Assembly (NCBI GenBank): GCA_030427255.1
Contig: JAUHWY010000018.1
Span: forward strand, 2,359-66,358
Direction of reading: 5' to 3'
Length of the DNA: 64,000 bases
Origin: Bacteroidia bacterium
GTDB lineage: Bacteria > Bacteroidota > Bacteroidia > CAIKAF01
Numbering within the stretch: position 1 is the stretch's first letter; each line of letters opens with the position of its first letter. The translations under genes were made by a program, and so were the position numbers. The notes under the pieces were generated by a model. The model saw nothing but the letters and a program-made list of their open reading frames with translations, was not told the DNA's origin and did not search any database. Of the stretch, positions 4,991 to 64,000 are shown piece after piece.

Positions 4991-5180
4991 GATTTTTTGG
5001 GCGGCTCATCCCGCCCTCCCTGCAAGTCCTTGCCCCCAAGGCAGGTGCGGCTAGGTGGTACGTGGGCTCTCCCTGAACTAAGGGAAAGCCTCCGCCCACC
5101 AAGCCGCAGCCTGCCTTGGTTGCTCCGGGCTTTCCGTTCGGTCGGGGCCGCAGATCTCCTTCCAGAAGGGTAGGTTTGCC
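4991..5180. repeat. GC-rich long imperfect palindromic element (core-type repeat)
   Basis: TTTTTT-GGGCGG hairpin start. Long inverted repeat CCAAGGCAGGTGCGGCTAGGTGG ... CCACCAAGCCGCAGCCTGCCTTGG. It shares CTGCAAGTCCT and GCTCCGGGCTTTCCG...GGCCGCAGA blocks with the element at 38527. Confidence 0.6.
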
Positions 5181-10040: not shown

Positions 10041-10099
10041 TAACATTGGGCGATTCTTTTTAAGAAATCTATGATAAGGTGGAAGGGCAATGGTGAATG

Positions 10100-10545
10100 A
10101 TGAATGATGAATGATAAATGATAAATGATGAATGATAAATGATGAGGTAAAGACGGGATGCCTCCCGTCTCTCCATGATGATGTAAAGACGGGACATTTC
10201 CCGTCTCCGAATGATGAGGTAAAGACGGGATATCTCCCGTCTCCGAATGATGATGTAAAGACGGGATGCCTCCCGTCTCTCAATGATAAGGTAAAGACGA
10301 GATATCTCCCGTCTCTCCATGATGAGGTAAAGACGGGACATTTCCCGTCTCCGAATGATGATGTAAAGACGGGATGCCTCCCGTCTCTCAATGATAAATG
10401 ATGAGGTAAAGACGGGATGCCTCCCGTCTCTCCATGATAAGGTAAAGACGGGACATTTCCCGTCTCTGAATGATAAGGTAAAGACGGGATGCCTCCCGTC
10501 TCTCAATGATGAGGTAAAGACGGGATGCCTCCCGTCTCTCAATGG
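10100..10545. repeat. AATGATG/AATGATA heptamer array followed by 11 tandem 37-bp hairpin units (AATGATGAGGTAAAGACGGGA-loop-TCCCGTCTCTC)
   Basis: Units read off directly. Each unit has an 8-bp stem AGACGGGA/TCCCGTCT with a variable 4-nt loop (TGCC, CATT, TATC). There are no unique spacers between units. Confidence 0.85.
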
Positions 10546-10639: not shown

Positions 10640-10855
10640 GTGATTCAACCTAGAGTGGAGGGTTTTCAAAGAATGGCCCCCCGGCCAAATGGAGGGCCGT
10701 CCGATGCCGGAAAGCTGCCATGGCGCAGGCGAGGAAGCGGTGCCGATACTTCGGGAAAGCTACCGGAGCCCCGCCATGGCGCTTTCCGGCGAGGAAGACC
10801 GGAGTTAGGGCCGGATAGAATATATGGACATACTACGAAGCAGGGGCCCCAAGGC
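10640..10855. repeat. GC-rich palindromic core element
   Basis: It shares CAAAGAATGGCCCCCCGGCC with 38735. Inverted repeat CCGGAAAGCTGCCATGGCG ... CGCCATGGCGCTTTCCGG. Confidence 0.6.
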
Positions 10856-20817: not shown

Positions 20818-21474
20818 TCAATGACCTTGCGCAATGGCCAAATAGGCGCTTAAAAAGCAGAATCCCAACAGAATAAAAGTCCAATAGTAGGCCCAAGGCC
20901 CATAGCTGAGCCGTACGCTTTCTTTTTGACTTTGTAACCAAAAGCTGCCCAGCAATCCTAGCATTGCCGAGGGGGTAAAAAAGGGAAATCCATACCACCA
21001 CGCAAGGAAAGGACTGCTAATAGCCAATAAGCTCACCATGGGCAAAACCATGCGCTCAACTCCCGAAAACGCTTGCGCTTTTTTGCCATCTGCCACCTCC
21101 TTGGCCACCACTTCCGCCGGAATTTCCAAGCCACGCTCTGCCAATACCAAACGAGCTAATGCTAAGTTTTCCTCGCCCCATTCTTCCGATTTCCTGAAAA
21201 TTCCAATGAGCTCCAAATCCTTCATGGACCAAAAGGGATGATTTTTTGGAGGCGTTCCCAGCAGTTCCGGCAAACGTTCCCTCAATACAGCAATTTCTTC
21301 TGCCAAAACATACAGCCATAGCACCGGCGGAAAAGGTCCCCGGCCCGTAATGGCGTCAAAAGGCCTGTTTTCTATCCGGACTCTTACTGAAAACCCTTCA
21401 TCCTCAAGCAGTTCTTTCAGCGAATCGGCATTTTCTTTTACCTCATACCTACCGACCAAATGCCAATGTGCCAT
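20818..21474 (-). CDS. Hypothetical protein with C-terminal transmembrane segments
   Basis: 218-aa ORF. No motif recognised. Preceded upstream by a C6A8 homopolymer tract. Confidence 0.4.
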   Translation of the reverse strand: MAHWHLVGRYEVKENADSLKELLEDEGFSVRVRIENRPFDAITGRGPFPPVLWLYVLAEEIAVLRERLPELLGTPPKNHPFWSMKDLELIGIFRKSEEWGEENLALARLVLAERGLEIPAEVVAKEVADGKKAQAFSGVERMVLPMVSLLAISSPFLAWWYGFPFFTPSAMLGLLGSFWLQSQKESVRLSYGPWAYYWTFILLGFCFLSAYLAIAQGH

Positions 21475-21477
21475 TGC

Positions 21478-21665
21478 CTTGATTTTTTTTGGGGGGCAAA
21501 CGGGCTGTCAGCTATACGCGCCTGCGGCAACAAGGGGTGGCAGCAACCCAAAGTCGGGGCTTGCTGCGCGCCGCCGCGCCTTTGGGGCTGCCACTCCCTG
21601 TTGCCGCAGCCGGGTGCCGCTTCCATCCCTGCCCCAAAGATTATGCGCTGAAAACTCAATGCCTG
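21478..21665. repeat. GC-rich long imperfect palindromic element
   Basis: T8G6 tract, then inverted repeat CCTGCGGCAACAAGGGGTGGCAGC ... GGGGCTGCCACTCCCTGTTGCCGCAGCC. Confidence 0.6.
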
Positions 21666-21671
21666 CCAAGA

Positions 21672-23531
21672 TTACATTTGCTCAGGAGCCTCAATACACA
21701 ACAGGCTCAAGGTCTTTGCCAAATGGTCTGCTACAACCTTGGTTAAGGCCAATCGGTAATCCCGTGCTTCGGTATCTTCTGCTCTTAGAATCGGATGGTC
21801 GTGATAAAAACTACTGTAGGCCGAGGCCAACTGGTAGGCGTAGTTGGCCATTTCCGAGGGACTATAGTTCCGCGCTGCTGCGGACAATATTTCTGGAAAA
21901 CGACTCAATAAACGCACCAATTTCCATTCGGCAGCATCCGGGGAGTAGTGTCCCGACAAAGAGCTGTTTAAAAACTCCAAACCGGAAGTGGAGGCATTCC
22001 GTAAAACCGAACAACAACGGGCATGCATGTATTGAATGAATGGACCGGTATTTCCTTGGAAATCAATGCTTTCTTTAGGATTAAACACCATGCGCTTTTT
22101 AGGATCCACCCTCAAAATAAAATAGCGGAGTGCGCCTAAGCCAATAGCACTCCATATTTGCTGTTGCTCCACCTCATTCAACTGGTTGAGTCGTCCTTGT
22201 ACAGAAGCTTTTTCGCGGGCAATATCCGTTACGGTTTCTATTAAATCGTCGGCATCTACCACGGTGCCTTCCCGGCTTTTCATTTTTCCGGTCGGAAGTT
22301 CTACCATTCCGTAAGACAAATGGAACAGCTGGTCGGAGGCTTTAAGACCCAAACGCTTTAAAATTTCAAAGAGCACCTTAAAATGGTAGTCTTGTTCGTT
22401 TCCCACCACATATATGGCACGTTCAAAATCAAAATCTTGCTGCTTTTGATAAGCCAGGGCTATATCTTGGGTCATGTACACCGTGGTTCCATTGCTGCGT
22501 AAAACCAACTTTTCATCCAGACCAATGTCGGTTAGGTCTATCCAAACCGAACCATCTTCTTTTTCAAAAAATACCCCTTTTTTGAGGCCTTCCTGTACGG
22601 TTTCTCGCCCTAAATTATAGACGTCGGATTCGAAGTATACTTTGTCAAACTTTAGGTCAAGGGCTTCAAAGGTTTGGTTGACTCCCTGGTAAAACCAGTC
22701 GTTCATTTTTTGCCAAAGAGACCGAACTTCGGAGTCACCCTTTTCCCAGGCAATGGTTAATTCGTCTACTTTTTGAGCAATAGGCGCCTGCTTTTGAGCT
22801 TCTTCTTTGCTTAGTCCTTTAGCCATTAGGGCTTCGGTTTCCTCCTTCCATTGGCGGTTGTACTCCACGTAGTATGCGCCAACAAGCGCATCTCCCTTAA
22901 TATTTGCTTCCTGTGGACTGAGTTTTTCTTTGCTCTCCAAATAGGCTGCCATAGACTTGGAGATGTTGGTGCCCCGGTCGTTGAATAAATTGGTACGCAC
23001 CACGGTATGTCCTTTGGCTTCTAATATTGAGGCTAAAGAACTTCCCAGAAAGATGTTGCGTAAATGCCCTAAATGCAGTGGTTTATTGGTGTTTGGCGAA
23101 GGATATTCCATAAGCACCGTGGAACGACTACCGGGAGCTTCAAATCCGGCTTTGGGATGTTTAAGCAACCATTCGAGTGCCTCGTTCCAGTATGCTGCAC
23201 TTAGCTTAAGATTCAAAAAACCGCGCACGGTTTGGTAGCTTTCAATGGCGGGTAGGCTAGTCTTGAGTTGTTCTCCTAAAACTTGGCCCAGGTCTTCGGG
23301 GGACATACCCAAAGGCTTTATGTACGGAAACAATACCACCGCAAAGTCCTCATCCATTTCGTTGGGTGGCAATTGCACCTGTGGCTGTTTGAGTTTTTCG
23401 GGAATCTGCCACGACTTTTCTTGCGCCAAGGAGGCTATGTTTTTTTCCGCTTCAAGGGCAATACGCTCCACAATTCTTTCCATGCGGTAAAGATACAGGC
23501 CTAATGCATTTAAGGTTCCAATTTTTAGCAA
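21672..23531 (-). CDS. argS: Arginine--tRNA ligase
   Basis: Class-I HLGH motif (PLHLGHLRN), KMKS motif and DALR-type C-terminus. The start is probably the Met at 23483. Confidence 0.85.
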   Translation of the reverse strand: MLKIGTLNALGLYLYRMERIVERIALEAEKNIASLAQEKSWQIPEKLKQPQVQLPPNEMDEDFAVVLFPYIKPLGMSPEDLGQVLGEQLKTSLPAIESYQTVRGFLNLKLSAAYWNEALEWLLKHPKAGFEAPGSRSTVLMEYPSPNTNKPLHLGHLRNIFLGSSLASILEAKGHTVVRTNLFNDRGTNISKSMAAYLESKEKLSPQEANIKGDALVGAYYVEYNRQWKEETEALMAKGLSKEEAQKQAPIAQKVDELTIAWEKGDSEVRSLWQKMNDWFYQGVNQTFEALDLKFDKVYFESDVYNLGRETVQEGLKKGVFFEKEDGSVWIDLTDIGLDEKLVLRSNGTTVYMTQDIALAYQKQQDFDFERAIYVVGNEQDYHFKVLFEILKRLGLKASDQLFHLSYGMVELPTGKMKSREGTVVDADDLIETVTDIAREKASVQGRLNQLNEVEQQQIWSAIGLGALRYFILRVDPKKRMVFNPKESIDFQGNTGPFIQYMHARCCSVLRNASTSGLEFLNSSLSGHYSPDAAEWKLVRLLSRFPEILSAAARNYSPSEMANYAYQLASAYSSFYHDHPILRAEDTEARDYRLALTKVVADHLAKTLSLLCIEAPEQM

Positions 23532-23556: not shown

Positions 23557-24171
23557 TTGACAGGCTTTTATGAAATTCGTAGCATGAAATTTAATCTCAC
23601 CGACGTTACCCGTCTAATCCGAACTCGACGAAGCATTCGTCCGGAGCAGTTGCGCAACCGGAAGGTACACCGCGATCAGTTGGAGTTGATGTTTGAGGCT
23701 GCCAATTGGGCCCCAAATCATGGAAAAACCGAACCTTGGCGCTTTAAGGTATTTCAAGGAGAAGCATTGCAAGCGCTGCAGCAACAGATGGCGGATGTAT
23801 ACAAAGAGGTGAGTGCCCCCGATGCTTTTTTACAGTCCAAATACGAACAAATTCAGGCTAGAGCGCAAAAGGCTTCTGTGGCTATTGTAGTGTGGATGAA
23901 ACGCCAGGAAAGCGGCCGAATTCCTGAAGAAGAAGAGATGATGGCAGTGGCTTGTGCCGTTCAGAACATGAGTCTGGTAGCCACGGCTTATGGCATGGGG
24001 CTGTTTTGGTCTTCCGGAAAAGTGGCCTATGCGCCCTCCTTTGCCAAGTATCTGGGTATTGAATCTCCTGATCGGGTGTTGGGGGTGCTGTATCCGGGCT
24101 ATCCGGAAGAGGAGTGGCCCGAAGGCAAGCGCAACATTTGGATGAATAAGGTGGAGTGGAACGGGTTTTAA
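23557..24171 (+). CDS. Nitroreductase family protein
   Basis: RRSIRPEQL FMN-binding motif. Nitroreductase fold length. Confidence 0.7.
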   Translation: MTGFYEIRSMKFNLTDVTRLIRTRRSIRPEQLRNRKVHRDQLELMFEAANWAPNHGKTEPWRFKVFQGEALQALQQQMADVYKEVSAPDAFLQSKYEQIQARAQKASVAIVVWMKRQESGRIPEEEEMMAVACAVQNMSLVATAYGMGLFWSSGKVAYAPSFAKYLGIESPDRVLGVLYPGYPEEEWPEGKRNIWMNKVEWNGF

Positions 24172-24329
24172 CAAAAAGCTCCCATAACTTCCTTTTTTTT
24201 GCGTTTTTCTTGGGGTATGGAGCCAGCCGGGGCTCCTTTTAGCTTTTATGCCGGATGTAGAGATTTTCAAAATGTTAATTATTTGAAAATGAGATACTTA
24301 ACATTTTTTATGTAGAGATTTTTTATGGG

Positions 24330-24525
24330 GAGAGGCATTGCCCTACGGAGCTTAAAGCGCCCCGATGGAGTCGGAAAGCCCGGAAGTTGGAGGCCCGGCT
24401 CGGCTTAGCGGGTGGAGGCTGATTCCATTGGTTTGGAGAAGCCCCCGCACCGCTTAGCCGGCCGTGGCCTCCAGCTGAGGACTTGGAGACGGAAGCGGAA
24501 AAGGCGCCCAAAACTTTAAAATGCA
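24330..24525. repeat. GC-rich long imperfect palindromic element
   Basis: Inverted repeat GGAGGCCCGGCTCGGCTTAGCGGGTGG ... CCGCACCGCTTAGCCGGCCGTGGCCTCC. Confidence 0.55.
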
Positions 24526-24575
24526 ATAACCTAAAAATTGGAGCTCTTTAAAGCTTCCTTTTTTCAAATGTGGGT

Positions 24576-25157
24576 TTAGCCGAAATATTCCGGGGCGTTG
24601 CCGGGCTTCCATTTGATGTTGCAGCCCATGCTTGGTTTTTGGTCTGTGGGGATTTTATTTCCCTGCAACAGCTGTTCTACCGCTGCGGCAAGGTCAGCTC
24701 CGGTGACGGCTGCATCATTCTTTGGGCGGGCATCATCGAATTGGCCGCGGTAAACGCAGGCAAGTGCATCGTCAAACAGCATGAAATCGGGAGTGCAGGC
24801 CGCAAAATAGGCTTTGGCGGTTTCTTGCGACGCGTCGAATAAATAGGGCCAATCAAATCCATATTCTGTGGCAAGATCCTTCATTTTTTCGGGGCTGTCT
24901 TGCGGGTATTTCTCTACATCGTTGCTGGAAATAAAGGCAATTCCCAAGCCCATATCTTGCCATTCCGTGCATAAATCTACCAATTTGGGCAGGATATGAA
25001 TTACGTAGGGGCAGTGGTTGCAAATGAACACCACCAATAGACCTTTTGGACCTACCAGGTCTTCCGGGCTCCATGCTAAGGATCCAATGGTATCGGGCAA
25101 TTCAAAGTCAGGTGCTCTAAATCCCAAAGGAATTTGGTGTGTAGGTGTAGCAGCCAT
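24576..25157 (-). CDS. Thioredoxin-fold protein (AhpC/TSA or thioredoxin-family peroxiredoxin-like)
   Basis: CNHCP (CxxC) active site embedded in a thioredoxin-fold context. Confidence 0.7.
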   Translation of the reverse strand: MAATPTHQIPLGFRAPDFELPDTIGSLAWSPEDLVGPKGLLVVFICNHCPYVIHILPKLVDLCTEWQDMGLGIAFISSNDVEKYPQDSPEKMKDLATEYGFDWPYLFDASQETAKAYFAACTPDFMLFDDALACVYRGQFDDARPKNDAAVTGADLAAAVEQLLQGNKIPTDQKPSMGCNIKWKPGNAPEYFG

Positions 25158-36883: not shown

Positions 36884-37429
36884 ATGGAGCTTATCGATAA
36901 TCAACTCAATGGATTGATGCTCTTCCGTCCTCCTTGTTTTCAGGACGATAGGGGATATTTCATGGAAACCTTTCACATGGAAAAGCTCCATGCTTTAGGC
37001 CTCAATGAATCCTTCGTTCAAGACAATGAGTCAATGTCCGACAAAGGCGTGTTGCGTGGTTTGCATTTTCAGGCGCCTCCCTACGCGCAAGGAAAGCTAA
37101 TTCGGGTAATCCAAGGAGCGGTATTGGATGTGGCTTTGGATATTCGCTCAAGCTCACCCACCTACGGCCAATTCAGAACCTTTGAACTTTCGGCCGAAAA
37201 CAAACATATGCTCTTTTTGCCTCCGGGCTTTGCCCATGGCTTTTTGTCCCTGCAAGACCAAACCATTTTTTCCTATAAGTGCACCAACGTTTACCATAAG
37301 CCCTCCGAGGGAGCTATTTTATGGAACGACCCCGACCTAGACATCCCATGGAATATTGATCAGGCCATTGTTTCGGCCAAAGACCAAGCAGCCCAGCCAT
37401 TCCGCGATTTTGTTTCGCCATTTCCTTGA
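36884..37429 (+). CDS. rmlC: dTDP-4-dehydrorhamnose 3,5-epimerase
   Basis: FQDDRGYFMETF and LRGLHFQ cupin motifs. Confidence 0.85.
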   Translation: MELIDNQLNGLMLFRPPCFQDDRGYFMETFHMEKLHALGLNESFVQDNESMSDKGVLRGLHFQAPPYAQGKLIRVIQGAVLDVALDIRSSSPTYGQFRTFELSAENKHMLFLPPGFAHGFLSLQDQTIFSYKCTNVYHKPSEGAILWNDPDLDIPWNIDQAIVSAKDQAAQPFRDFVSPFP

Positions 37430-38529
37430 TCTTTTCTACTATGATTCAATCTACGCTGCTTGTCCTTTTGTTGTTTGCTCTTATTAGTGCGGGTGTATCG
37501 CTTTTTATTAATGCATTATTGCTTAAGTTTTCTACCAATTTGGGCACCCGAAACACCGCAGGCTTGGTGCGTTGGTCAAGTCAGGTAAAGCCTTCTGTAG
37601 GTGGAATTTCCTTTTTTATTATTTTCCTCATGTCGCTGGTCTTTGGGCTTATTTATACCCCGGACCTTCAGTCAAACCTGCCTTTGCTGGGATTTTCCGC
37701 AGCCGTAGGCCTTGGTTTTCTCATTGGCCTGGCCGACGATGCCTACAATACCAAACCTCTCCTAAAATTCTCCGGCCAAGTGGCCTGTGGAATTATTCTC
37801 ATTGCCTCAGGCATTACCATTGACCTTTTCCCCCAAAAGGGCTTCGATGAGGCACTAACTTTGTTGTGGACAGTCGGCATTATGAACTCCGTAAATATGC
37901 TCGACAATATGGATGGAATTACCGCCTCCACCTCGCTTTCCATCACCGGAGGACTCACCCTAATGCATTTGGTGCAACCGGAGGCTCCAATGAGTGTGTT
38001 TTTTGTGCTGCTTCTAGGGGTTTCAGCCGGTTTGGCAGGCTTTTTGTACTACAATTGGAACCCAAGCCGAATGTTCATGGGCGACACCGGCAGCCAATTT
38101 CTGGGCGTGTTCCTGGCGGGAATGTCCGTTATTTACCTTTGGAACGGACAGTGGGTGCCGGGAGCCAATGGTGCATTCACTCAAGAACCGTTGCGTGCCT
38201 TTCTTTTGGTGTGGCTGTTTTTCTTAGTCCCCATTGCCGACACCACCACCGTGTCCATCAACCGCTTAATGAAAGGCAAGTCGCCCTTTGTTGGCGGACG
38301 CGACCACACCACCCATCATTTGGTTTACCTTGGACTAAAAGATAGACACGTGGCTTCTTTATTGCTGCTTATTTCCCTCGCCGGAGCTATGCTTGCTATT
38401 TGGTTTATTTTACCTGCTCCACAGCTCAATTTGTGGCACTTAATTATTGGATTTGGCCTTTGTTTGCTAAGTCTCATTGGCCTGTACAGCACCACTTGGC
38501 TGGCTAAGGCTCCCGAGCCGAAAAAATGA
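37426..38529 (+). CDS. Undecaprenyl-phosphate sugar-1-phosphate transferase (MraY/WecA family)
   Basis: DDxxN (LADDAYN) and NxxNxxDGIDGL-like (NSVNMLDNMDGI) motifs. Ten or more TM segments. Confidence 0.8.
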   Translation: MIFSTMIQSTLLVLLLFALISAGVSLFINALLLKFSTNLGTRNTAGLVRWSSQVKPSVGGISFFIIFLMSLVFGLIYTPDLQSNLPLLGFSAAVGLGFLIGLADDAYNTKPLLKFSGQVACGIILIASGITIDLFPQKGFDEALTLLWTVGIMNSVNMLDNMDGITASTSLSITGGLTLMHLVQPEAPMSVFFVLLLGVSAGLAGFLYYNWNPSRMFMGDTGSQFLGVFLAGMSVIYLWNGQWVPGANGAFTQEPLRAFLLVWLFFLVPIADTTTVSINRLMKGKSPFVGGRDHTTHHLVYLGLKDRHVASLLLLISLAGAMLAIWFILPAPQLNLWHLIIGFGLCLLSLIGLYSTTWLAKAPEPKK

Positions 38530-38890
38530 TGTTTTTTTTGGGCGCCTTTTGGGGCCCTCGCTGCAAGTCCTCGGCTTGGGCGCACGGAGCGCTAAGGCTT
38601 GCGGGGGCTCCGCAAAGCTCCGCCTCCACAGCCCAAGCGCTCCGGCGCCCAAGCCTCCGGGCTTTCCGCATCGGTCCCCGGCGCAGAATCTCTATACTTT
38701 GGTAGACCATCTAAACCTTAGGGTTTAGTACATTCCAAAGAATGGCCCCCCGGCCCGGGTGGACGCCCACGCTGCGGCAGGCCTTAGGTTCGGCCCGGCC
38801 TTACTAGTGGAGCTTTGCGGAACTCAGTAAGGCCGGATTGCCGACCTTAGGCCTGCCGCAGTGAGGCTGGAACCAGGGGCCGATAGATGC
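38527..38890. repeat. Two tandem GC-rich palindromic core elements
   Basis: T8-GGGCGCC start. Inverted repeat GGCTTGGGCGCACGGAGCGCT ... AGCGCTCCGGCGCCCAAGCC. Second module begins CAAAGAATGGCCCCCCGGCC, as at 10667. GTGGAGCTTTGCGGAAC is shared with 52830 and 58290. Confidence 0.6.
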
Positions 38891-38994
38891 AAAAAATGCG
38901 CTTATGGAATAGGGCCCAAAAAACCGCTTTTCGTGTAAGAGCAGCAGCCATTTCAGTCTAAAAATTAGCTTATTTCCCCTAACTTCGTGCGGCT

Positions 38995-47147: not shown

Positions 47148-47222
47148 CTTGATGCCTTGTGTTTTTAAGCCAAGCATCCTAGCCCAAACCTAAAGATAGA
47201 ATCGCCACCAGAATAGCAGCGA
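47148..47222. repeat. Diverged or deleted copy of the MITE found at 3133-3277
   Basis: CTTGATGCCTTGTGTTTTTAAGCC matches the left end GTTGACGCGTTGTGTTTTCAAGG. CGCCACCAGAATAGCAGCGAGCCAAC matches the right end CGCCGCCAGAATAGCAACGCGTCAAC. Confidence 0.5.
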
Positions 47223-47257
47223 GCCAACATTCTCCTTTTGGTGCAGATTCCAGGGCT

Positions 47258-51052: not shown

Positions 51053-51074
51053 GGGGCAAGGTAAGGAAATATAC

Positions 51075-51480
51075 GAATGATTAATGATTAATGATGAGTG
51101 ATGCAGTAAAGACGCAACATCTTGCGTCTCATGCGTCTCATGCGTCTCAAGCGTCTCATGCCTCCCCTGCGTCTCAAACCGCAGTAAAGACGCAACATCT
51201 TGCGCCTCATTTTTTTGGCCGCCTTATCCTGCTGTCTGCGGTAGTGCCCCGTCTCCGGCCCACGGTCTGCGGCCGCTCCGGGGTCTTCGTTCCTCAGCCT
51301 CCTCGCTTGGCCGCATACCGGGGCCGGAGCCGCGTCAGCTACCTGCTTCCATCAGGGGCGGAGGATTACTAAAACTTTAAGAGAGGGGTGAGGTAAAGAC
51401 GCAATATCTTGCGTCTCAAACCGCAGAAAAGACGCAGTATCTTGCATCTCAAAAGTCTCAACTTGTTTTCAACACCCCAC
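51075..51480. repeat. Composite repeat: heptamer array, GGTAAAGACGCAA-loop-TTGCGTCTCA hairpin units, GC-rich palindromic core, then more hairpin units
   Basis: Read off directly. TGCGTCTCA nonamer repeats. The core has inverted repeat CTCCGGCCCACGGTCTGCGGCC ... GGCCGCATACCGGGGCCGGAG. Confidence 0.8.
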
Positions 51481-51530
51481 GCCCAACCGCTCTTTTGTCC
51501 TTACCTTTATCTTTCAACTTATTTTTCTTT

Positions 51531-52829
51531 ATGAAGTTCCTTTATTTCTTGCTTAGCCTTCTTTGGTCCGCCGGACTTTATGCGCAATCCGTTCGCATTG
51601 CTTCGTCTCCCGGACAGGCCGACCCCAGCGCCGGTTTGGATGTGGATTTTAACGACCGGGGCCTGCTTTTGCCCAGGTTAACCACCACCCAACGCAATGC
51701 CATCGCCAGTCCTGCCGATGGGCTTCAAATATTCAATACCACCAGCCAATGCATGGAAGTCTTTATTTCCAACAGTTGGTTTGCAGTGGCTTGCCCTTGC
51801 CAATATTTTCCCAACGCTCAGTTTTCGTTCTCTCCTTCCAATCCGGGAGCAGGAAATGCGGTGAGTTTTAGTCCCCAGCAATCAGGACTGCAATACCAAT
51901 GGTTGTTTGCCTCCGGTACACCGGCCTCTTCTTCCCAAGCCAACCCTTCCGTTACTTGGGCCAATGCAGGTACTTATTCGGTGGTGCTTCAGGTGACCGA
52001 CAACCAAGGATGCACCGCATCCGATACCCAAAATGTGGTGGTGAGCAGCTGCCCTCCCGGTTCTCAAACCTTTACCGCCAACGGCACGCTAGCCTCGGGT
52101 AGCATTCAAAGTTTTACGGTGCCGGCCTGTGCAACCTCAGTTACGGTAGAAGCCTGGGGCGCACAAGGCGGAAGTACCTCCAACACCAACGGTGGTTTGG
52201 GCGCCTACATCAAAGGCACTTTCTCGGTGTCGGGCGGTGAAGTACTGCGCGTCTTGGTGGGTCAACAAGGCGAAGCCGGCTCTTCTGGTCACGGCAACTG
52301 CGGTGGCGGCGGTGGCGGCTCTTTTGTGACCCGCAGCAACAACCAGCCCATGGTGGTGGCCGGTGGAGGCGGCGGTGCAGGAACCGCTTCCAACATCAGC
52401 ATTCGTACGCCCGATCCGGGACAAACTGGAAACAGCGGAACGGCAGGAAAAGGAAATGGAATGCCCGGCGGCACCGGAGGAAATGGTGCTCCGGGAGTTT
52501 GTTCAAGTTGTGGCGCAACCAATGGAGCCGGTTTGCAGAGCAACAGCCAAGCCTATGGCAGCTCTTATGGAACCTCAGCCATTGCTTTTACCAATGGTGG
52601 AGGAGGGGCTACCTCCAGTAGTGGATACGACGGTGGATTTGGGGGTGGCGGAGCAGGAGCTTTTGGTGCCGGCGGCGGCGGAGGTTATTCCGGTGGAGGT
52701 TCAGGAAACTATTCCGGTACCACGGACAACAGCGGCGGCGGCGGTGGCGGCTCTTTTAATGGAGGCACCAATCCGAGCAATCAAGCCGGAGTGAGGAGTG
52801 GGAATGGGCAAGTAATCATTAGTTGGTAA
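51531..52829 (+). CDS. Secreted PKD-domain/glycine-rich protein (paralog of 3743..4990)
   Basis: Signal peptide MKFLYFLLSLLWSAGLYAQ. Same N-terminal module (GLLLPRLTTTQRNAI...GLQIFNTTSQCMEVF). PKD-like segment. SFTVPACATSVTVEAWGAQGG. G-rich tail ending GNGQVIISW. Confidence 0.7.
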   Translation: MKFLYFLLSLLWSAGLYAQSVRIASSPGQADPSAGLDVDFNDRGLLLPRLTTTQRNAIASPADGLQIFNTTSQCMEVFISNSWFAVACPCQYFPNAQFSFSPSNPGAGNAVSFSPQQSGLQYQWLFASGTPASSSQANPSVTWANAGTYSVVLQVTDNQGCTASDTQNVVVSSCPPGSQTFTANGTLASGSIQSFTVPACATSVTVEAWGAQGGSTSNTNGGLGAYIKGTFSVSGGEVLRVLVGQQGEAGSSGHGNCGGGGGGSFVTRSNNQPMVVAGGGGGAGTASNISIRTPDPGQTGNSGTAGKGNGMPGGTGGNGAPGVCSSCGATNGAGLQSNSQAYGSSYGTSAIAFTNGGGGATSSSGYDGGFGGGGAGAFGAGGGGGYSGGGSGNYSGTTDNSGGGGGGSFNGGTNPSNQAGVRSGNGQVIISW

Positions 52830-52985
52830 GACCGGCCAGGGACCGGCACGGAAAGCCCGGATGACGCCGGCGGATGCCAAGGCAGGCCTGCCGCGGTGGA
52901 GCTTTGCGGAACCCCGGCAGAACTAGCCTTGGCTCCGCTGGCGTCACCGGACTTGGAGGGAGGGCCCGGCAGGCCGCCCAATGAA
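52830..52985. repeat. GC-rich palindromic core element
   Basis: Inverted repeat GACGCCGGCGGATGCCAAGGC ... GCCTTGGCTCCGCTGGCGTC. GTGGAGCTTTGCGGAAC is shared with 38800. Confidence 0.6.
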
Positions 52986-53021
52986 ACCTACAAATCCCTA
53001 TTTGCGTATCTTTGACTTTGC

Positions 53022-55280
53022 ATGGAAAGCCACAAAATCGATGACTATTTGGCCGAAGAACAGGCCGAAATCAAAAAGCAATACCGCGCCCTGTTGCGGG
53101 CTGCCGGCAAAAATGTGGACAAGCCGGAGGACAAAAAGCGCATTCGTAGGGCCTTTGATTTGGCCGTAGATGCCCACAAAGAAATGCGCCGAAAGTCAGG
53201 AGAACCCTACATTTATCACCCCATTGCCGTGGCGCGCATTGTGTCGGAGGAGATGGGGCTGGGGGCCACCAGCATCATTTGTGCTTTGCTGCACGATACG
53301 GTAGAAGATACCGAAATTACCCTCGAAGATATTGAGCAGTTTTTTGGCCCAAAAGAGTCCAAAATCATCGATGGGCTCACCAAAATGGAAGGGGTATTTG
53401 ACCATACGCAATCCATTCAGGCCGAGAATTTTCGGAAGATTGTACTTACCCTCGCCGAGGACATTCGGGTAATTCTTATAAAAATCGCCGATCGCCTGCA
53501 CAACATGCGCACGCTCACCCACATGCGGCGCGATAAGCAACTTAAAATCGCCTCTGAAACGCTCTATTTGTATGCGCCTTTGGCCCATCGCCTTGGCCTG
53601 TACAACATCAAAACGGAGCTGGAAGACTTGAGCCTCTGCTATTTGGAACCCGAAGCTTTTGCCGATATTGAAGCCAAGCTCGAAAAAAGCAAAGAAGTAC
53701 GCGATCGCTTCGTTACCCATTTTGTGTATCCAATCCGCAAGGCCCTAAAGGCTCAAGAAATTGATTTTGAAATAAAAGGAAGAACCAAGTCCATTTATTC
53801 CATTTACAATAAGATTCGTAAGAAGGGTGTTCCTTTTGAGGAGATTTACGACATTTTTGCCATCCGAATCATTTTGGATGTGCCGCCCGAACGCGAAAAG
53901 GCTGAAATTTGGCGCACCTATTCTCTGGTCACCGATGTGTATCAACCCAAGCCGGACCGCCTGCGCGATTGGATTAGCTTTCCCCGGGCCAACGGCTACG
54001 AAAGTTTGCACGTTACGGTGATGAGTCCCACCGGCAAATGGGTGGAAGTACAAATCCGCAGCCGGCGCATGGACGACATGGCCGAAAAGGGCTATGCCGC
54101 CCATTGGAAGTACAAAGAGAATCAAGCCGAATCGGCCATTGACGAGTGGATTACCCGCGTGCGCGAAATGCTCGAAAGCCATCAGGAAGGGGAAGCCCTC
54201 GATTTTATGGACTCCTTTAAGTTGAACTTGTACAACGAGGAGATTTATACCTTTACACCTAAGGGAGAGCTGCGCACCATGCCTTCGGGTGCCACGGCCC
54301 TGGATTTTGCCTACGATATCCATTCCGAACTGGGCGACCACTGCCTTGGCGCCAAGGTCAACAACAAACTGGTGCCGCTAAGCTATGTGCTCAAAAGCGG
54401 CGACCAAATCGAAATTCTAAGCTCCAAAAAGCAAAAGCCCAAGGAAGATTGGCTCAGCTTTGTGGTAACCGGCAAAGCCCGCAGCCGCATCAAAGCTGCC
54501 CTCAAAGACGAAAAACGCCGCATTGCTGCCGAAGGAAAAGAAGTATTGGAACGCAAACTGCGCCGCCTTAAAATTCATTTTACCGAGGACGACCTGCCCA
54601 AAATGCTTAAATACTTCTCGGTGGACGATCCCTTGGAATTTTATTTTCAGGTGGGTACTGCGGCCATCAGCTCCCAACAAATTCGCGATTTTTATCGGGC
54701 AGAGAGCAACCGCAGCTGGTACCGCTACCTCACCACCAAGTTTAAGCGCAGCCAAATCAACGAAAAGGCCGAGGACAAAGACCAGCAGCTGCTCAAAAAG
54801 CTCAAGCAAGAAGAGAATCAACTACTGATTGGCGACAATTTAGAGAAGTTGGACTATAGCTTGGCCCCCTGTTGCAACCCCATTCCCGGCGACGAGGTAT
54901 TTGGCTTTGTTACCGTGGGCGACGGCATTAAAATCCACAAAACCAATTGCCCCAACGCCGTACAACTGCTCTCCAACTACGCCTATAGAGTGGTGAAAGC
55001 CAAGTGGACCAGTTCCGACGAACCTGCCTTTTTGGTGGGCATTCGCGTAACGGGCGTAGACGATGTGGGCATAGTGAATAAAATTACCCGCCTCATTTCC
55101 AATCAAATGAAGGTGAATATACGCTCTTTGAGTTTCGACTCAAATGATGGTATCTTTGAAGGCAGAATGACCCTGTTTGTGCAACATACCCTGCATTTGA
55201 ACGAACTCATCGGCAAATTGCGCGATTTGGAGGGGGTTATTGATGTGGAACGCATTACCCCTGAGCACCCAACGGCATGA
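53022..55280 (+). CDS. Bifunctional (p)ppGpp synthetase/hydrolase, RelA/SpoT family
   Basis: HD hydrolase motif (ALLHDTVEDT). Synthetase domain. TGS and C-terminal ACT regions. Confidence 0.9.
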   Translation: MESHKIDDYLAEEQAEIKKQYRALLRAAGKNVDKPEDKKRIRRAFDLAVDAHKEMRRKSGEPYIYHPIAVARIVSEEMGLGATSIICALLHDTVEDTEITLEDIEQFFGPKESKIIDGLTKMEGVFDHTQSIQAENFRKIVLTLAEDIRVILIKIADRLHNMRTLTHMRRDKQLKIASETLYLYAPLAHRLGLYNIKTELEDLSLCYLEPEAFADIEAKLEKSKEVRDRFVTHFVYPIRKALKAQEIDFEIKGRTKSIYSIYNKIRKKGVPFEEIYDIFAIRIILDVPPEREKAEIWRTYSLVTDVYQPKPDRLRDWISFPRANGYESLHVTVMSPTGKWVEVQIRSRRMDDMAEKGYAAHWKYKENQAESAIDEWITRVREMLESHQEGEALDFMDSFKLNLYNEEIYTFTPKGELRTMPSGATALDFAYDIHSELGDHCLGAKVNNKLVPLSYVLKSGDQIEILSSKKQKPKEDWLSFVVTGKARSRIKAALKDEKRRIAAEGKEVLERKLRRLKIHFTEDDLPKMLKYFSVDDPLEFYFQVGTAAISSQQIRDFYRAESNRSWYRYLTTKFKRSQINEKAEDKDQQLLKKLKQEENQLLIGDNLEKLDYSLAPCCNPIPGDEVFGFVTVGDGIKIHKTNCPNAVQLLSNYAYRVVKAKWTSSDEPAFLVGIRVTGVDDVGIVNKITRLISNQMKVNIRSLSFDSNDGIFEGRMTLFVQHTLHLNELIGKLRDLEGVIDVERITPEHPTA

Positions 55281-55741: not shown

Positions 55742-55805
55742 CCACGGGATATGTTGCGTCTCTGCATGCCAATTATTCCGCGCTGAAGCCTTTGCGCCTC
55801 TAAGA

Positions 55806-55953
55806 CATCGGCATCCGCGCCTGCGCCGTCCAATCCAGCGACCCCTTGGCCCCGCTCCGATATTTCATTAGCCCCGCCATGGCAATCATGGCCGCATTGT
55901 CGGTGCAATAAGCCAATTTGGGGATGTGCAATTCCCAGCCTTTTTGGGTGCAG
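55806..55953. repeat. 147-bp direct repeat copy A: displaced duplicate of the tsaD 3-prime end (putative attL)
   Basis: 143/147 identity with 57112-57262. Read on the minus strand it encodes a TsaD-like C-terminus ending ...QARMPMS* with no upstream coding continuation. Confidence 0.75.
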
Positions 55954-56107
55954 GAATTTTTTAGAAATCTGTATTCAACATGGGTAGCGGTAATTTTATA
56001 ATGTAGAAAACTCTTAGAGAAAGCACAAATGCTATTTAAAACTATAGTTTTGAAACAATTTTAATTTTTTTTCGTATAACCTTTTGTTTTATAAAAAATA
56101 TTAGCGA

Positions 56108-57067
56108 ATGAGAACTGTAAAAGATTACATGTTAAATCCAGAATTATTTGATAATGATAATTTTAATGAAATCGAGGCGTACCATTTTTTCTCAAAAACC
56201 TTAAATAGAGTAAGGCTACCTATTATAAATGTTACTGTAGCAAATAATTTTATTGATAGGCTTAGAAGGTTAGAAGGTGATAAACTTCATACTAGTTTGG
56301 CAGACTATCTTCCGGTGTCTTCAACAAATTATGAGGTTTTAGAAAAAATTTCTGGAGGTAGAGCTAACTTGCCCAGACAATCCGTTTTTTATGGTAGTTT
56401 AAGAACAGAGGAAAATCCTTACAGCCGTATTACTGCTTTAACAGAGGTTTCTGCGAATCATAGGCGTCCAGCAATTAATAAAGTGCAGTTAAAAGACTTA
56501 ACAAGATTTCAAGAAAATGAAGAGAGTAGTAACTTAAAGGATTTTTTTTATTCTTTTTCACGGTGGGAAATTAGGAAGCCATTAGAGCTTGCAGTTGTAA
56601 TGCCTTTTGGGAGTTATGCAAATTCAATGAATAGGCAAATAATGGAGCAGTGTCAGCAAAAATTTAATTCACTTTCCACAAGAGATAAAGAGTTAATAAG
56701 ACTTCTTTCTGACTCATTCTTAAATAATAAAAGTACTCGTTGGAAGTACTATTTTTCTGCATATTACGCAAACTGTTTATATAGGGAATTTGATGGAATT
56801 CTTTACCCGAGTATGCAATCAAACCAAGAAGGGCAAAATATTGTTTTAAGGAGTGATGTAGTTCTAAATAAGTTAAGCTTAGATAAAATAGCTCTTTTAG
56901 AAGAAAGAGTTATAAATGACAATAAAAGCCCTCACACAGTGGTAGATATAATTGGTGTTGGAGATTTTTCGAATGATGATATTTTTTTCTATACATTAAA
57001 GAATGGAGTAATTAGTTCCACAAGAAAATGTTATTGTAAAGACCAATTGAAACAAATGGCGAAATAG
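56108..57067 (+). CDS. Orphan extended RES-domain-like protein on an AT-rich islet (putative NAD+-targeting toxin or defence effector)
   Basis: Arg motif SGGRANLP (GGRxN-like). VFYGSL...ALTEV (Y-x-S...A-L-E). DGILYPSMQSNQEGQNIVL (Ser motif plus N-[IL]-V-L). GC is about 30% against a 50% background. Confidence 0.5.
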   Translation: MRTVKDYMLNPELFDNDNFNEIEAYHFFSKTLNRVRLPIINVTVANNFIDRLRRLEGDKLHTSLADYLPVSSTNYEVLEKISGGRANLPRQSVFYGSLRTEENPYSRITALTEVSANHRRPAINKVQLKDLTRFQENEESSNLKDFFYSFSRWEIRKPLELAVVMPFGSYANSMNRQIMEQCQQKFNSLSTRDKELIRLLSDSFLNNKSTRWKYYFSAYYANCLYREFDGILYPSMQSNQEGQNIVLRSDVVLNKLSLDKIALLEERVINDNKSPHTVVDIIGVGDFSNDDIFFYTLKNGVISSTRKCYCKDQLKQMAK

Positions 57068-57087
57068 GCGAGTAGAAATAGTTGATT

Positions 57088-58125
57088 TTAAGAAACCTTA
57101 TTGGGGTGTATCATCGGCATCCGCGCCTGCGCCGTCCAATCCAGCGACCCCTTAGCCCCGCTCCGATATTTCATTAGCCCCGCCATGGCAATCATAGCCG
57201 CATTGTCGGTGCAATAAGCCAATTTGGGGATGTGCAATTCCCAGCCTTTTTCGGTGCAAGCCTCCAGCAAAAAGCCCCGAAGCCCTTTATTGGCCGATAC
57301 CCCGCCTGCCAGCACCACCCGATGCACGCCCGTGGCCTCAACCGCCTCTTGCAGTCCCTTCCACAAAGTGGCAATAATCGCATCCTGATAATCGCGCGCC
57401 AAATCGGCCAAAGCTTGTCCCTCAGGAACCGCTTCCTGCTTTTGCAAGTACTGATACAAACTGGTTTTTAGTCCCGAAAAACTAAAATGCAGCGGTCCGG
57501 CCTTAGGCACAGGGAAGCGATGATTTCCGGGGCGACCTTGCGCGGCCAAGCGATCGATTTCCGGTCCTCCGGGATAGGGCAGCCCCAGCAATTTGGCGGC
57601 CTTGTCAAAGGCTTCGCCGGCGGCGTCGTCCAGGGTTTGACCGAGCAGTTCCAGACGGGTAGGGGAGTGCACCAGCACCAATTGCGTATGCCCCCCCGAC
57701 ACCGTAAGGCTCAGAAAAGGAAAATCGGGAGGATTTTTGCCGCTGATTTCCGCATCCTCAATAAAATGCGCCAGCACATGCGCTTCCATGTGGTGCACAT
57801 CAATAAGCGGAAGATTCAGCGCCAAGCTAAGTCCCTTGGCAAAGGAGCTGCCCACCAGCAGCGAACCCAGCAAACCGGGACCACGGGTGCAGGCAATCAG
57901 TTCCAAATCCTCCAGACGGCATTGCGCTTGCGCCAGGGCCTGATGCACCACCGGCAGAATGTGGCTCATATGGGCACGGGAGGCCAATTCGGGCACCACG
58001 CCACCGTATTGTCGGTGCACCTCCTGATTGGCGGTGACGTTGGCCAGAACGCGCGAGCCACTAAGCACGGCCGCGGAAGTATCGTCGCAGGAGCTTTCGA
58101 TGCCAAGAATAAGCGGTGGGCGCAT
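57088..58125 (-). CDS. tsaD: tRNA N6-adenosine threonylcarbamoyltransferase TsaD
   Basis: ILGIESSCDDTSAAV N-terminus. Conserved His pair and Kae1/TsaD fold length. The last roughly 150 bp are the copy B repeat, and the final 7 codons lie on the islet side. Confidence 0.85.
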   Translation of the reverse strand: MRPPLILGIESSCDDTSAAVLSGSRVLANVTANQEVHRQYGGVVPELASRAHMSHILPVVHQALAQAQCRLEDLELIACTRGPGLLGSLLVGSSFAKGLSLALNLPLIDVHHMEAHVLAHFIEDAEISGKNPPDFPFLSLTVSGGHTQLVLVHSPTRLELLGQTLDDAAGEAFDKAAKLLGLPYPGGPEIDRLAAQGRPGNHRFPVPKAGPLHFSFSGLKTSLYQYLQKQEAVPEGQALADLARDYQDAIIATLWKGLQEAVEATGVHRVVLAGGVSANKGLRGFLLEACTEKGWELHIPKLAYCTDNAAMIAMAGLMKYRSGAKGSLDWTAQARMPMIHPNKVS

Positions 58126-58146: not shown

Positions 58147-58640
58147 GGAATGATGAATGATGGATGATGAATGATGAGTGATGAATGATGAGGTAAAGAC
58201 GCAACATCTTGCGTCTCATGCGTCTCATGCGTCTCCACCCCCCAGTAACGACGCAACATCTTACGTCTTATGCGTCTCATGCGTCCCAAACGGCGCTTCT
58301 TGGGCCTTCCTTCCATAGGAAACCTAAGTTCCATATCCGCCCCTTTTCATCGGTCAGGCCCCGCCCCAAGCAAGCCGATCTAGGGCTCCGGTGGTTCCGC
58401 AAAGCTACACCTCCTCGCCCAAGTTCGGCTAGCCTGGGTCAGGGCGGCTTACAGCCCTGACCCTAGCGTCAGGGGCCCTCTGTGGGGGGCGGGAGGCGCA
58501 ACAAAAGGGCGTAGTGACGCATTGCCATGCGTCTACAGCAAGAGGGTAGCGACGCAAAATGTTGCATAATGGTGTTGTGGTTTATGGAGACGCAAAGTAT
58601 TGCGTCTTTACATCATTCATCATTAACCATTCATGATTAA
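58147..58640. mobile_element. MITE-like composite element with inverted termini (heptamer array plus GACGCAA hairpin units at both ends, in opposite orientation, flanking a GC-rich palindromic core)
   Basis: Left end 58147-58285 is GAATGATG array then GGTAAAGACGCAACATCTTGCGTCTCA. Right end 58587-58640 is GAGACGCAAAGTATTGCGTCTTTACATCATTCATCATT, the reverse complement of the same module. The core 58286-58560 contains GCTCCGGTGGTTCCGCAAAGCT, the inverted form of a block shared with other cores. Confidence 0.6.
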
Positions 58641-58687
58641 CCATTCCCTATACGTACTTTTGTTCCTTATTCTGCGTTGGGCACCTA

Positions 58688-63448: not shown

Positions 63449-63840
63449 GGTGAATGATGAATGGTGAATGATGAATGGTGAATGATGAATGATGAATGGT
63501 GAATGATGAATGGTGAATGATGAATGGTGAATGGTGAATGATGAATGGTGAATGATGAATGGTGAATGATGAATGGTGAATGATGAATGGTGAATGATGA
63601 ATGGTGAATGATGAATGATGAATGGTGAATGATGAATGATGAATGATGAATGATTAGGGGTGAGGTAAAGACGCAACATCTTGCGTCTCATTAGGGGTGA
63701 GGTAAAGACGGGGTGCCTCGCGTCTCATTAGGGGTGAGGTAATGACGGGATGCCTCGCGTCTCTTAATGATGAATGGTGTATGGTGAATGATGAATGATT
63801 AGGGATGAGGTAAATACGGGATGCCTCCCGTCTCTTAATG
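63449..63840. repeat. (GAATGATGAATGGT)n 14-bp array of about 15 copies, then mixed GACGCAA-type and GACGGGA-type hairpin units each preceded by TTAGGGGTGAGG
   Basis: Starts on the base after the tamB stop. Both hairpin families occur in one array. Confidence 0.85.
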
Positions 63841-64000
63841 ATGAATGGACTCTGCGTGCCCTTACACCGCGACAGCGGTTTCACGCAAAGTCGCCAAGCC
63901 GCAAAGGGGCGTTTGACGGCGCTATCTATTTCACAAATAGTTCCTTCCGCGCTAAAGCCTTTGCGCCTTCGCGTTTCTGCATGCCAATGCTTCCGCGCTA
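63841..64000. repeat. GC-rich core element, truncated by the window end
   Basis: Shares TTCCGCGCTAAAGCCTTTGCGCC and TCTGCATGCCAAT blocks with 55758-55800. Confidence 0.5.

Follow-up and report, generated by a model that had tools for sequence, protein, structure and literature searches.

Dispersed between the genes of a 64-kb stretch of Bacteroidia bacterium DNA (contig JAUHWY010000018.1, hereafter the window; mean GC ~48%) lie six copies of a GC-rich element that, judged by covariance-model homology, very probably constitute a divergent, GC-rich, long-stemmed subfamily of Flavo-1 (RF01705). We regard these elements as probable structured repeats of the Flavo-1 kind that would resemble repetitive extragenic palindromes and bacterial interspersed mosaic elements (REP/BIME) in being mobilised in trans, maintained by the host and placed as stop-proximal hairpins in 3′ untranslated regions. 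They occur in either orientation, densely and in mosaics, are retained at orthologous sites and often sit beside stop codons, features that together bring them closer to REP/BIME than to small RNA (sRNA) genes, terminators or inert miniature inverted-repeat transposable elements (MITEs).

A preliminary description of the window had grouped GC-rich blocks at nine loci into one family of long palindromes. The blocks are indeed GC-rich (0.62–0.72 against a window background of ~0.48), and the stems and shared sequence blocks quoted for them are present as quoted. Comparing the window with itself returned four clearly related copies with mutual identities of 65–69%, namely A1 (4993–5158, plus strand), A2 (38534–38692, plus), A3 (24513–24359, minus) and A4 (52981–52835, minus). 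A covariance model, R1, built from these four and 72 copies from other genomes and run without filters, recognises six copies of one ~165-nt family among the nine flagged loci. A single family for all nine is ruled out by this model: the block at 10667 and the second half of the double block at 38527 are of another type (type B), 58363–58440 holds a module only, and 63841 is unsupported. A second model, R2, contains only AT-rich Flavobacterium copies, 29 in number. The six copies, all intergenic and amounting to about one per 10 kb, are listed here with their R1 and R2 scores and with neighbouring genes taken from mechanical calls of open reading frames (ORFs).

A1, 4990–5161, plus strand: R1 111.5 bits, R2 69.2 bits; begins 2 nt past the TAA stop of the PKD/Gly-rich gene 3689–4990.
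A2, 38531–38694, plus strand: the focal copy, by all appearances a complete Flavo-1-type element; R1 128.8 bits (E 9e-34), R2 64.8 bits; minimum free energy (MFE) −95 kcal/mol, z −6.7; begins 2 nt past the TGA stop (38527–38529) of the GT4 glycosyltransferase gene 37426–38529.
A3, 24346–24519, minus strand: R1 111.8 bits, R2 56.5 bits; between the convergent genes 23557–24171 (plus, nitroreductase) and 24576–25157 (minus, AhpC/TSA).
A4, 52823–52988, minus strand: R1 66.8 bits, R2 35.9 bits; non-T-run end 6 nt past the TAA stop of 51495–52829, T-run end 34 nt before the relA/spoT start (53022).
Divergent copy, 21482–21645, plus strand: R1 39.5 bits (E 3e-9), R2 33.9 bits (E 6e-7), fold z −5.6; between argS (21672–23531, minus) and the ORF 20818–21474 (minus).
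Divergent copy, 51208–51371, plus strand: R1 34.0 bits (E 1e-7), R2 14.7 bits (E 0.06), fold z −4.2; in the divergent region upstream of the PKD/Gly-rich gene 51495–52829, amid other repeats.

Read with the T-run first, as throughout this text, each copy is a single imperfect hairpin of ~165 nt in which a T-run and a closing helix precede a conserved core, and the core in turn encloses a long variable hairpin. From the outside inwards, the T-run is followed by a 5-bp closing helix, a 4–5-nt bulge, a second short helix and the conserved base, inside which a variable stem with a symmetric CTAAG/CYAAG mismatch site leads to a semi-conserved tip. A1 may serve as an example: its 5′ side consists of T4–8, the closing strand GCGGC, a 4–5-nt bulge, CCCG and the core CCCTCCCTGCAAGTCC, and its 3′ side, after the long hairpin, of TCCGGGCTTTCCG, TTCGGT, CGGG and GCCGC. 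The corresponding parts of A2 are given below.

38532–38539, plus strand: T8 run at the 5′ edge of A2.
38542–38570, plus strand: 5′ half of the base, with GCGCC (38542–38546), a TTTT bulge, GGGG (38551–38554) and the core CCCTCGCTGCAAGTCC.
38571–38655, plus strand: variable hairpin with mid-stem CTAAG/CCAAG and the tip GGGGCTCCGCAAAGCTCCGCC.
38656–38684, plus strand: 3′ half of the base, with the invariant TCCGGGCTTTCCG, CATCGGT, CCCC (38676–38679) and GGCGC (38680–38684).
38542–38570 with 38656–38684: pairing of the two base halves, as predicted by RNAalifold, with covariation in helices 1–3.

A1–A4 have (T-run)GGGCGSC, CTsCAAGTCC and TCCGGGCTTTCCG as invariant blocks, and across all six copies the family core is CTnCAAGTCC ... 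TCCGGGCTTTCCG. The pattern CAAGTCC-N75-105-TCCGGGCTTTCCG matches the window four times and 100 shuffles not once. Many blocks had been said to begin with a T-run followed by a GGGCG(G) hairpin; the T-run does precede GGGCGSC in four of the six window copies, but the supposed hairpin is better taken as the 5′ strand of the closing helix, which pairs with GSCGC on the 3′ side. Non-Watson–Crick features are kept too: 3-nt internal loops in the base (GGA/GNA on the strand used by Rfam, hereafter the Rfam strand), the mid-stem CTAAG opposite CYAAG and a conserved internal loop beneath the tip. In Flavobacterium, the base halves are direct repeats (GCTTTCCGCTnCAA, 13 of 14 positions identical) that pair with one another as a near two-fold-symmetric duplex, whereas in the window copies this symmetry has decayed and the 5′ box matches the 3′ box at 3–7 of 14 positions. 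Box similarity averages 0.62 in register versus 0.18–0.41 out of register and is weak in the window copies.

The structure is well supported by folding energies and by covariation. When the MFE of ten GC-rich blocks was compared with that of dinucleotide shuffles on both strands, eight of the ten folded far better than their shuffles on either strand (forward z −4.2 to −8.4), which bears out the long hairpins of the preliminary description for these eight; at 63841 the fold is weak (z −1.9 and −2.9). The proposal that the two arms of a stem change together is upheld as well. Across an alignment of 76 copies with 33 specified pairs, 84% of the positions are paired compared with 64.5% after column shuffling and 48–57% with slid partners; the covariation score is 0.51 as against 0.17–0.21 in controls, and 26 pairs have changed on both sides. 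Both-sided changes affect all six pairs of helix 2 (columns 22–28 with 171–177; 87% paired) and all 11 pairs of the hairpin base (82% paired), and the closing helix is 66% paired. Among the window copies the outer helices co-vary visibly (GCGGC/GCCGC, GCGCC/GGCGC and CGGCC/GGCCG; CCCG/CGGG versus GGGG/CCCC). The upper stem is not alignable, so its arms were compared directly, the 5′ arm with the reverse complement of the 3′ arm, and complementarity amounts to 75% within a copy versus 49% between copies (in A2, 0.81 within the copy versus 0.50–0.62 to other copies). The pairing is thus under selection, and a dispersed family of structured palindromes with compensatory change is supported, although templated repair from arm to arm could mimic such change. 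Taken together, pairing and conserved mismatches indicate that a folded single strand, be it RNA or DNA, is what matters. An assignment of the functional strand from counts of G.U pairs versus A.C mismatches was discarded, as the counts contradict one another between helices and are dominated by conserved positions.

The preliminary description did not recognise the family as a described Bacteroidota repeat. The link to Flavo-1 (RF01705; PMC2864571) emerges from Flavobacterium members of the family, which score at Rfam's gathering threshold (42 bits), and from R2. The Flavobacterium copy L074 matches the Rfam model with 42.7 bits, on the strand opposite to the T-run-first orientation, and in a batch of 18 loci the long copies L008:6083–6225 and L034 reach 42.9 and 42.1 bits and a canonical short copy, L008:488–595, reaches 59.6 bits. 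L074, L008 and L034 are among the sequences that make up R2, and R2 in turn detects A1, A2, A3, A4 and the 21482–21645 copy at scores from 69.2 down to 33.9 bits, with E between 3e-16 and 6e-7. As the 21482–21645 copy does not contain the pattern by which family copies were fetched, its R2 test is free of ascertainment. Since R2 finds the window copies, we place the window family, with considerable confidence, in Flavo-1 as a divergent subfamily. The two have in common two similar boxes (UUGnAGCGGAAAGC, Rfam strand) that pair across 3-nt internal loops around a hairpin of variable length, a short outer closing helix, an A/T-run at one end, the same phylum and a multi-copy habit, and members of the window family's alignment reach the Rfam threshold. 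The window copies differ in their GC content of 0.62–0.72, in a hairpin of 85–95 nt versus ~23 nt in the Rfam model, in a degenerate 5′ box (3–7/14 versus 13/14 in Flavobacterium) and in an extended closing helix.

Against the assignment to Flavo-1 stands the behaviour of the Rfam model itself, which has no match at gathering in the whole window and none at E ≤ 10 in 38450–38950, 51150–53050 and 24280–24580; Rfam scans of the window at gathering and permissive thresholds returned spurious microRNA-hairpin matches only, and a tRNA/tmRNA scan of the window found none. With no Rfam match among the window copies, their membership rests on transitive homology, and it is understandable that the family was not recognised from the sequence at first. 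Flavo-1 was introduced by Weinberg et al. in 2010 with 239 representatives and a remark on taxonomy alone (PMC2864571). Rfam types this Bacteroidota-wide dispersed repeat as Gene; sRNA with function unknown (RF01705), and a review ranks it among the most abundant sRNA families, again without a function (PMC9029176). In the F. psychrophilum transcriptome, Flavo-1 matches lie sense or antisense to transcribed regions, and many lie outside them (PMC9723704), a pattern that argues against a dedicated sRNA gene.

How far the family extends was seen from a collection with one genome per species, scanned with the core pattern CAAGTCC-N75-105-TCCGGGCTTTCCG as sole query. The scan returned at least 104 loci, of which ~75 are true copies and ~28 are chance matches in high-GC genomes, ~34 being expected for 20 fixed bases. 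Numerous Flavobacterium species contribute true copies, with AT-rich stems, and others lie in Flavobacteriales, Bacteroidales, Cryomorphaceae, Salinivirgaceae and Pedobacter records. A phage origin was considered and rejected, as the six viral-contig matches lack the family flanks or hairpin, are R1-negative and represent chance. The GUCCY-hairpin of Weinberg, considered for CAAGUCCUC, is a short hairpin between GUC and CY and a different element. In Pedobacter sp. Leaf216 (L029:3022–3688), miniature ~90-nt Flavo-1-type units (…CTCCAAGTCCTCACTCATTCTTCGCTCCGGGCTTTCCG…) have almost no central hairpin and form two tandem pairs ~480 nt apart, each within a larger duplicated segment. Many copies (L065, L009, L015, L027, L057, L076, L080 and L083) belong to the metagenome-assembled genome (MAG) CAZJFM01, labelled 'Candidatus Competibacteraceae' (Gammaproteobacteria); as CAZJFM01 is 91% identical to the window and syntenic with it over 6.6 kb, this label or the binning looks wrong.

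Close relatives reveal both retention and copying of the element. Syntenic with the window are M30B58 (MAG JAGYKD01, 'Flavobacteriales bacterium M30B58'), at 84–90% identity, and, at 91%, CAZJFM01 and the metagenome contig L111. Comparing orthologous intergenic sites, as had been suggested, showed all copies within the overlapping regions to be shared with the syntenic relatives. M30B58 also has a type B copy between a pair of convergent genes that are separated in the window by a 52-nt spacer. Orthologues are 96.6% and 95.2% identical for A2, 96.1% for A3 (L024) and 95–96% for the type B block B2, compared with 87–91% for the flanking, mostly coding DNA, and intergenic DNA beside the elements is far less conserved than the elements. 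Between A1 and its M30B58 orthologue the base halves are unchanged except for the 4-nt bulge, and the stem has diverged about as neutral intergenic DNA has; in four of its pairs both bases changed and in four others a wobble was gained or lost, pairing being kept in all eight, and seven pairs are broken.

Recent copying has taken place in M30B58, where L007 and the second L060 copy match at 99.3% along 153 nt that coincide exactly with the element (TTTT-GGGCGGCC...GCTGCCGC-A), their flanks being unrelated. Three M30B58 copies share flanking modules in different combinations (L007, L060). Of 80 metagenomic loci with a GT4 homologue, the element is present in one, the 90%-identical relative, and absent from the 79 at ≤55% identity. 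M30B58 also holds, at L060:4900–7431 (JAGYKD010000002.1), the genes of a hipBA toxin–antitoxin pair (a hipB-like helix–turn–helix protein and a hipA kinase) between two direct repeats, each consisting of a Flavo-1-type copy and a common 105-nt module (269 nt, 95%), beside a type I hsdM methylase. An unrelated 125-nt MITE (L042:6761–6880) lies between the A2 and B2 orthologues of M30B58 and is absent in the window; its terminal inverted repeats are GAGACTGTTGACGCGTTG ... CAACGCGTCAACGGTCTC, and matching ends occur in the window at 3244–3276 and 47202–47234. The window segment 2712–3547 (835 bp) is missing from M30B58.

The placement of the elements at gene ends, as first described, is borne out in so far as all copies are intergenic, with two starting 2 nt past a stop codon (4990 and 38531) and one ending 6 nt past a stop (52823). 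Their neighbours include argS, uvrA, relA/spoT, the GT4 glycosyltransferase, nitroreductase and AhpC/TSA genes and two paralogous genes for PKD and glycine-rich proteins, and metG is a further housekeeping neighbour. In A1, A2 and A3 the T-run lies beside the stop codon of a co-directional gene, and in A4 and the copies at 21482 and 51208 beside a gene start on the other strand, ending in the 21482–21645 copy 8 nt from the start codon of the opposite-strand ORF 20818–21474. A1 and A4 follow paralogous genes ending ...TTGGTAAGA, yet in opposite orientations. These paralogues (3689–4990 and 51495–52829) encode secreted-type proteins with PKD domains and have long GGC-repeat regions (glycine-rich, ALK_LTK_GRD-like), and the second is bracketed by the inverted copies 51208–51371 (plus) and 52823–52988 (minus).

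A preference for stop codons is apparent among the 54 copies that have ORFs of at least 150 codons to both sides. In 34 of them it is a gene end that the T-run end faces, and in 17 of these 34 the stop is no more than 6 nt away; for the non-T-run end, a stop is found within 7 nt in four copies only. These counts derive partly from orthologous copies and stand at ~16 versus 4 once obvious orthologues are removed by eye. The stop codon is often inside the T-run region (...TTTTAATTTTTTGGGCC, ...CATTAGGAGC). By gene-pair type, 16 of the 54 copies are convergent and 11 lie in divergent promoter regions. Among 81 family copies, 53 have a run of at least four T ahead of the structure and 12 have one behind it. 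A terminator scan found no hairpin with a U-tract at A2/B2 and, at A1, two weak sites, a number in keeping with the 1.0 per region expected by chance. No in-frame insertion in protein-coding genes was seen, all six window copies lying between ORFs, and the suggested analogy with Rickettsia palindromic elements is not supported.

The REP/BIME-like reading, which had been one of several analogies on offer and which we consider the probable one, holds in functional terms for a multi-copy, intergenic repeat that forms mosaics with other repeats. Copies would spread in trans through a putative enzyme that recognises the folded base, and would persist since the host uses or tolerates them. On transcription of the flanking gene, a very stable hairpin would form at or just past the stop codon, where it may protect or process the mRNA 3′ end or modulate translation-termination events. 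The symmetric conserved base is probably a binding site, the putative partner being a dimeric protein. This scheme presupposes transcription through the element, an effect at the mRNA level, a protein partner and a mobilising enzyme, and we put forward a REP-like mechanism only tentatively, by analogy. REPs lend stability to the mRNA upstream of them, and those no more than ~15 nt from a stop codon reportedly reduce translation (Liang, Rudd and Deutscher 2015).

Several observations weigh against the REP/BIME-like reading. Orientation is biased, at ~2:1 in co-directional gene pairs, but not fixed, so that not all copies can act as RNA of one particular strand. G.U pairs send mixed signals, with the closing helices and the tip favouring the T-run-first strand and the lower stem the Rfam strand. 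The family-alignment copies were fetched by a 20-nt pattern from the window, which makes those 20 positions invariant by construction, and the six AAGTCC/GGGCTT pairs are invariant solely through this pattern. Core conservation could moreover reflect gene conversion among copies rather than selection. As for mobility, no target-site duplication is recognisable at the L007/L060 junctions, the one empty site is too diverged to align, and no transposase, RAYT or GIY-YIG gene was found among 30 scanned window ORFs or between the examined paired copies. A REPtron-like arrangement, with a mobilising gene between inverted copies, was likewise rejected, as the genes enclosed by paired copies (an amino-acid kinase homologue, a small membrane protein, a three-gene metabolic/transport cluster and the PKD protein) have nothing in common.

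It seems unlikely that the elements are purely selfish, non-autonomous mobile DNA, that is, MITE-like palindromes with no host function whose fold is needed only by a transposase or recombinase acting on single-stranded DNA. Such palindromes would leave near-identical copies in unrelated flanks, presence and absence between relatives with the same gene junction empty in more distant taxa, mixed orientation, and mosaics with other repeats, the true MITE between A2 and B2 in M30B58 included, all of which are observed. They would not be expected, however, to be more conserved at orthologous sites (95–97%) than the flanking genes (87–91%), nor to keep an invariant core while the stem drifts, as inert insertions should decay evenly. 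The window copies are only 65–69% alike and hence old, yet they still fold, and neither a target-site duplication nor distinct terminal inverted repeats nor a candidate enzyme came to light at the loci examined. The further thought that the blocks might be fragments of one known mobile element finds no support, as no autonomous element was found.

A more speculative proposal, to which we give little credence, is that Flavo-1-type elements are sites read in folded single-stranded form by a dedicated, putative dimeric protein. One possibility is a recombinase or transposase by which elements are set down at the 3′ edge of ORFs and small cassettes, such as hipBA in M30B58, can be carried or delimited; another is an RNA-binding factor through which the fate of the mRNA is linked to translation termination. 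If so, a 15-year orphan 'sRNA' motif would turn into a Bacteroidota-specific counterpart of attC or REP with an enzyme of its own.

Independent trans-acting sRNA genes, the class in which Rfam places Flavo-1, are an improbable explanation. The strong covariation and the conserved purine-rich internal loops (GGA/GNA) on the Rfam strand would suit an RNA, and this strand has the lower MFE in 69 of 76 copies and, over the whole stem, 129 G.U pairs versus 75. This G.U evidence nevertheless conflicts between helices, no conserved promoter or terminator flanks the elements, and the Rfam strand ends in an A-run; in three window copies a transcript from it would continue, in antisense, into the last part of the ORF upstream. 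Six copies in 64 kb would be atypical of an sRNA gene, and consistent transcription is missing from the F. psychrophilum transcriptome (PMC9723704).

A role as recombination sites, folded from a single strand and bounding gene cassettes in the manner of integron attC, is very hard to reconcile with the neighbouring genes, which are mostly housekeeping (argS, uvrA, relA, metG). The resemblance lies in conserved ends that pair but contain unpaired bases, a central hairpin that varies between 23 and 100 nt, and conserved mismatches, as well as in a position directly after ORFs with an orientation bias. The hipBA genes beside hsdM between two direct copies (269 nt, 95%) in M30B58 and the PKD gene 51495–52829 between inverted copies could be read as cassettes, but hipBA is a single cassette-like case and the genes enclosed by other paired copies are mutually unrelated; the alignment consensus lacks the core RYYYAAC/GTTRRRY, and neither arrays nor an integrase are present.

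Intrinsic, possibly bidirectional, terminators or insulators, as also proposed at first, are scarcely credible despite very stable GC-rich hairpins at gene ends, an enrichment of convergent gene pairs (16/54) and the lack of any other terminator-like site near the genes that precede an element, because the T-run lies 5′ of the structure and the hairpin, whichever strand is read, has no U-tract after it, or else has an A-run there, which excludes intrinsic termination on anatomy, and because one copy sits 8 nt upstream of a start codon inside an apparent argS operon, 11 of 54 copies occupy divergent promoter regions, and the conserved internal loops and tip would be superfluous for termination.

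Of the flagged blocks outside the family, three have the following features.

B1, 10667–10819, plus strand: type B block, with a 23-nt block in common with B2.
B2, 38735–38887, plus strand: type B block, CCAAAGAATGGCCCCCCGGCC ... GGCTGGAACCAGGGGCCGATAGA; MFE −99 kcal/mol, z −8.4.
58363–58440, plus strand: just the upper-hairpin module (CTAGG ... GGTTCCGCAAAGCTACACC ... CCAAG), set on another base.

Type B is a second hairpin family with its own ends (CCAAAGAATGGCCCCCCGGCC ... GGGSCSGATAGA) and its own architecture. R1 scores type B blocks at ~8 bits with E ~1 (8.4 bits for B2), which is no match; as it matches A2 and not B2, the block at 38527–38890 that had been called double comprises one copy of each family, ~40 nt apart. 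B2 aligns with 10667–10819 and with L031:5836–6015, the latter being a copy in M30B58, at a different locus that holds no copy in the window, with 82.8% identity to B1. Compensatory change is seen here too: two adjacent double compensations distinguish B1 from the L031 type B copy, and one base pair of B2 is C-G in the window, A.G in M30B58 (L042) and A-T in a third lineage (L065, L111).

The module at 58363–58440 is 80% identical to A2 over 46 nt and has the mid-stem CTAGG/CCAAG and the tip GGTTCCGCAAAGCT in common with it. R1 gives it 8.2 bits over model positions 46–123 only, so that it is no member of the family, and the block at 58283 has a fold z of −4.2 on one strand only. The tip motif of A2 recurs at 38809–38822 (minus), 52898–52911 (minus) and 58395–58408; being found in A2, A4, 58363–58440 and, inverted, in B2, the tip is a module shared among different bases. 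The region 63841–64000 was rejected as a member in view of its weak fold (z −1.9 and −2.9) and its truncation by the window end. Over ~50 nt it is 90–96% identical to 55750–55800, just before a 147-nt direct repeat at 55806, and this common stretch may be another small repeat.

Two further repeat families travel together and adjoin several of the GC-rich blocks, at 10095–10545, 51062–51210, 51381–51473, 58149–58292, 58587–58651 and 63400–63850. One consists of heptamer arrays of GAATGAT/GAATGGT, with up to ~35 units at 63449–63650, and the other of 36-nt hairpin units, GAGGTAAAGACGGGATGCCTCCCGTCTC, 11 of them in tandem at 10135–10545, with a variant GTAAAGACGCAACATCTTGCGTCTC followed by ATGCGTCTC 9-mers. 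A related array in M30B58 (L014:1717–2396) is ~80% identical. These repeats look like REP-type 'CGTC-tagged' palindromes (compare PMC3733652), and the window repeat GTAAAGACGGG...CCCGTCTC fits the description of short tagged REPs better than the GC-rich elements do. Elsewhere in the window, an AT-rich island (55953–57111; GC 0.24–0.35) encodes a RES-domain protein (56108–57067) and is bounded by 147-nt direct repeats, 55806–55952 and 57112–57258 (98% identity), the second of which is formed by the 3′ end of tsaD (57088–58125, minus strand). The island looks like an integrated element that duplicated the end of its target gene.

The Flavo-1 family thus appears to reach well beyond what the Rfam model detects, the undetected forms being GC-rich and long-stemmed, with about one copy in every 10 kb. 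In its behaviour the family is a hairpin repeat, dispersed, maintained by selection and preferentially placed at stop codons, and not a collection of sRNA genes, and its near-symmetric conserved base would be suited to a dimeric protein. For annotation, such blocks are to be treated as repeats, not as genes or terminators.

Among known systems, integron attC sites resemble the elements as imperfect palindromes with conserved ends, unpaired bases and a variable centre subject to compensatory change, located just downstream of ORFs in a preferred orientation; the elements differ in having no attC core sequence, arrays or integrase, in their housekeeping neighbours and in being dispersed singly. 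Correia elements and MITEs share with them a length of 100–200 nt, folding from end to end, a position at gene ends and presence or absence between relatives, whereas in the window family no TA or other target duplication was seen, no terminal inverted repeats exist apart from the stem, and orthologous copies show purifying selection. REPs measure 20–40 nt and have a GTAG or CGTC tag and simple stems (PMC3733652). The window elements, at ~165 nt, lack such a tag and have a structured conserved base and tip, and, unlike REPs, which are linked to RAYT transposases, they have no RAYT nearby in the window or at the examined paired copies. They are nonetheless akin to the REP/BIME of Enterobacteria and Pseudomonas as dispersed, intergenic, multi-copy palindromes that form mosaics with other motifs, the A2 and B2 doublet in the window and the different module combinations of L007 and L060 among them, and that often lie near stop codons, in either orientation and conserved at orthologous sites.

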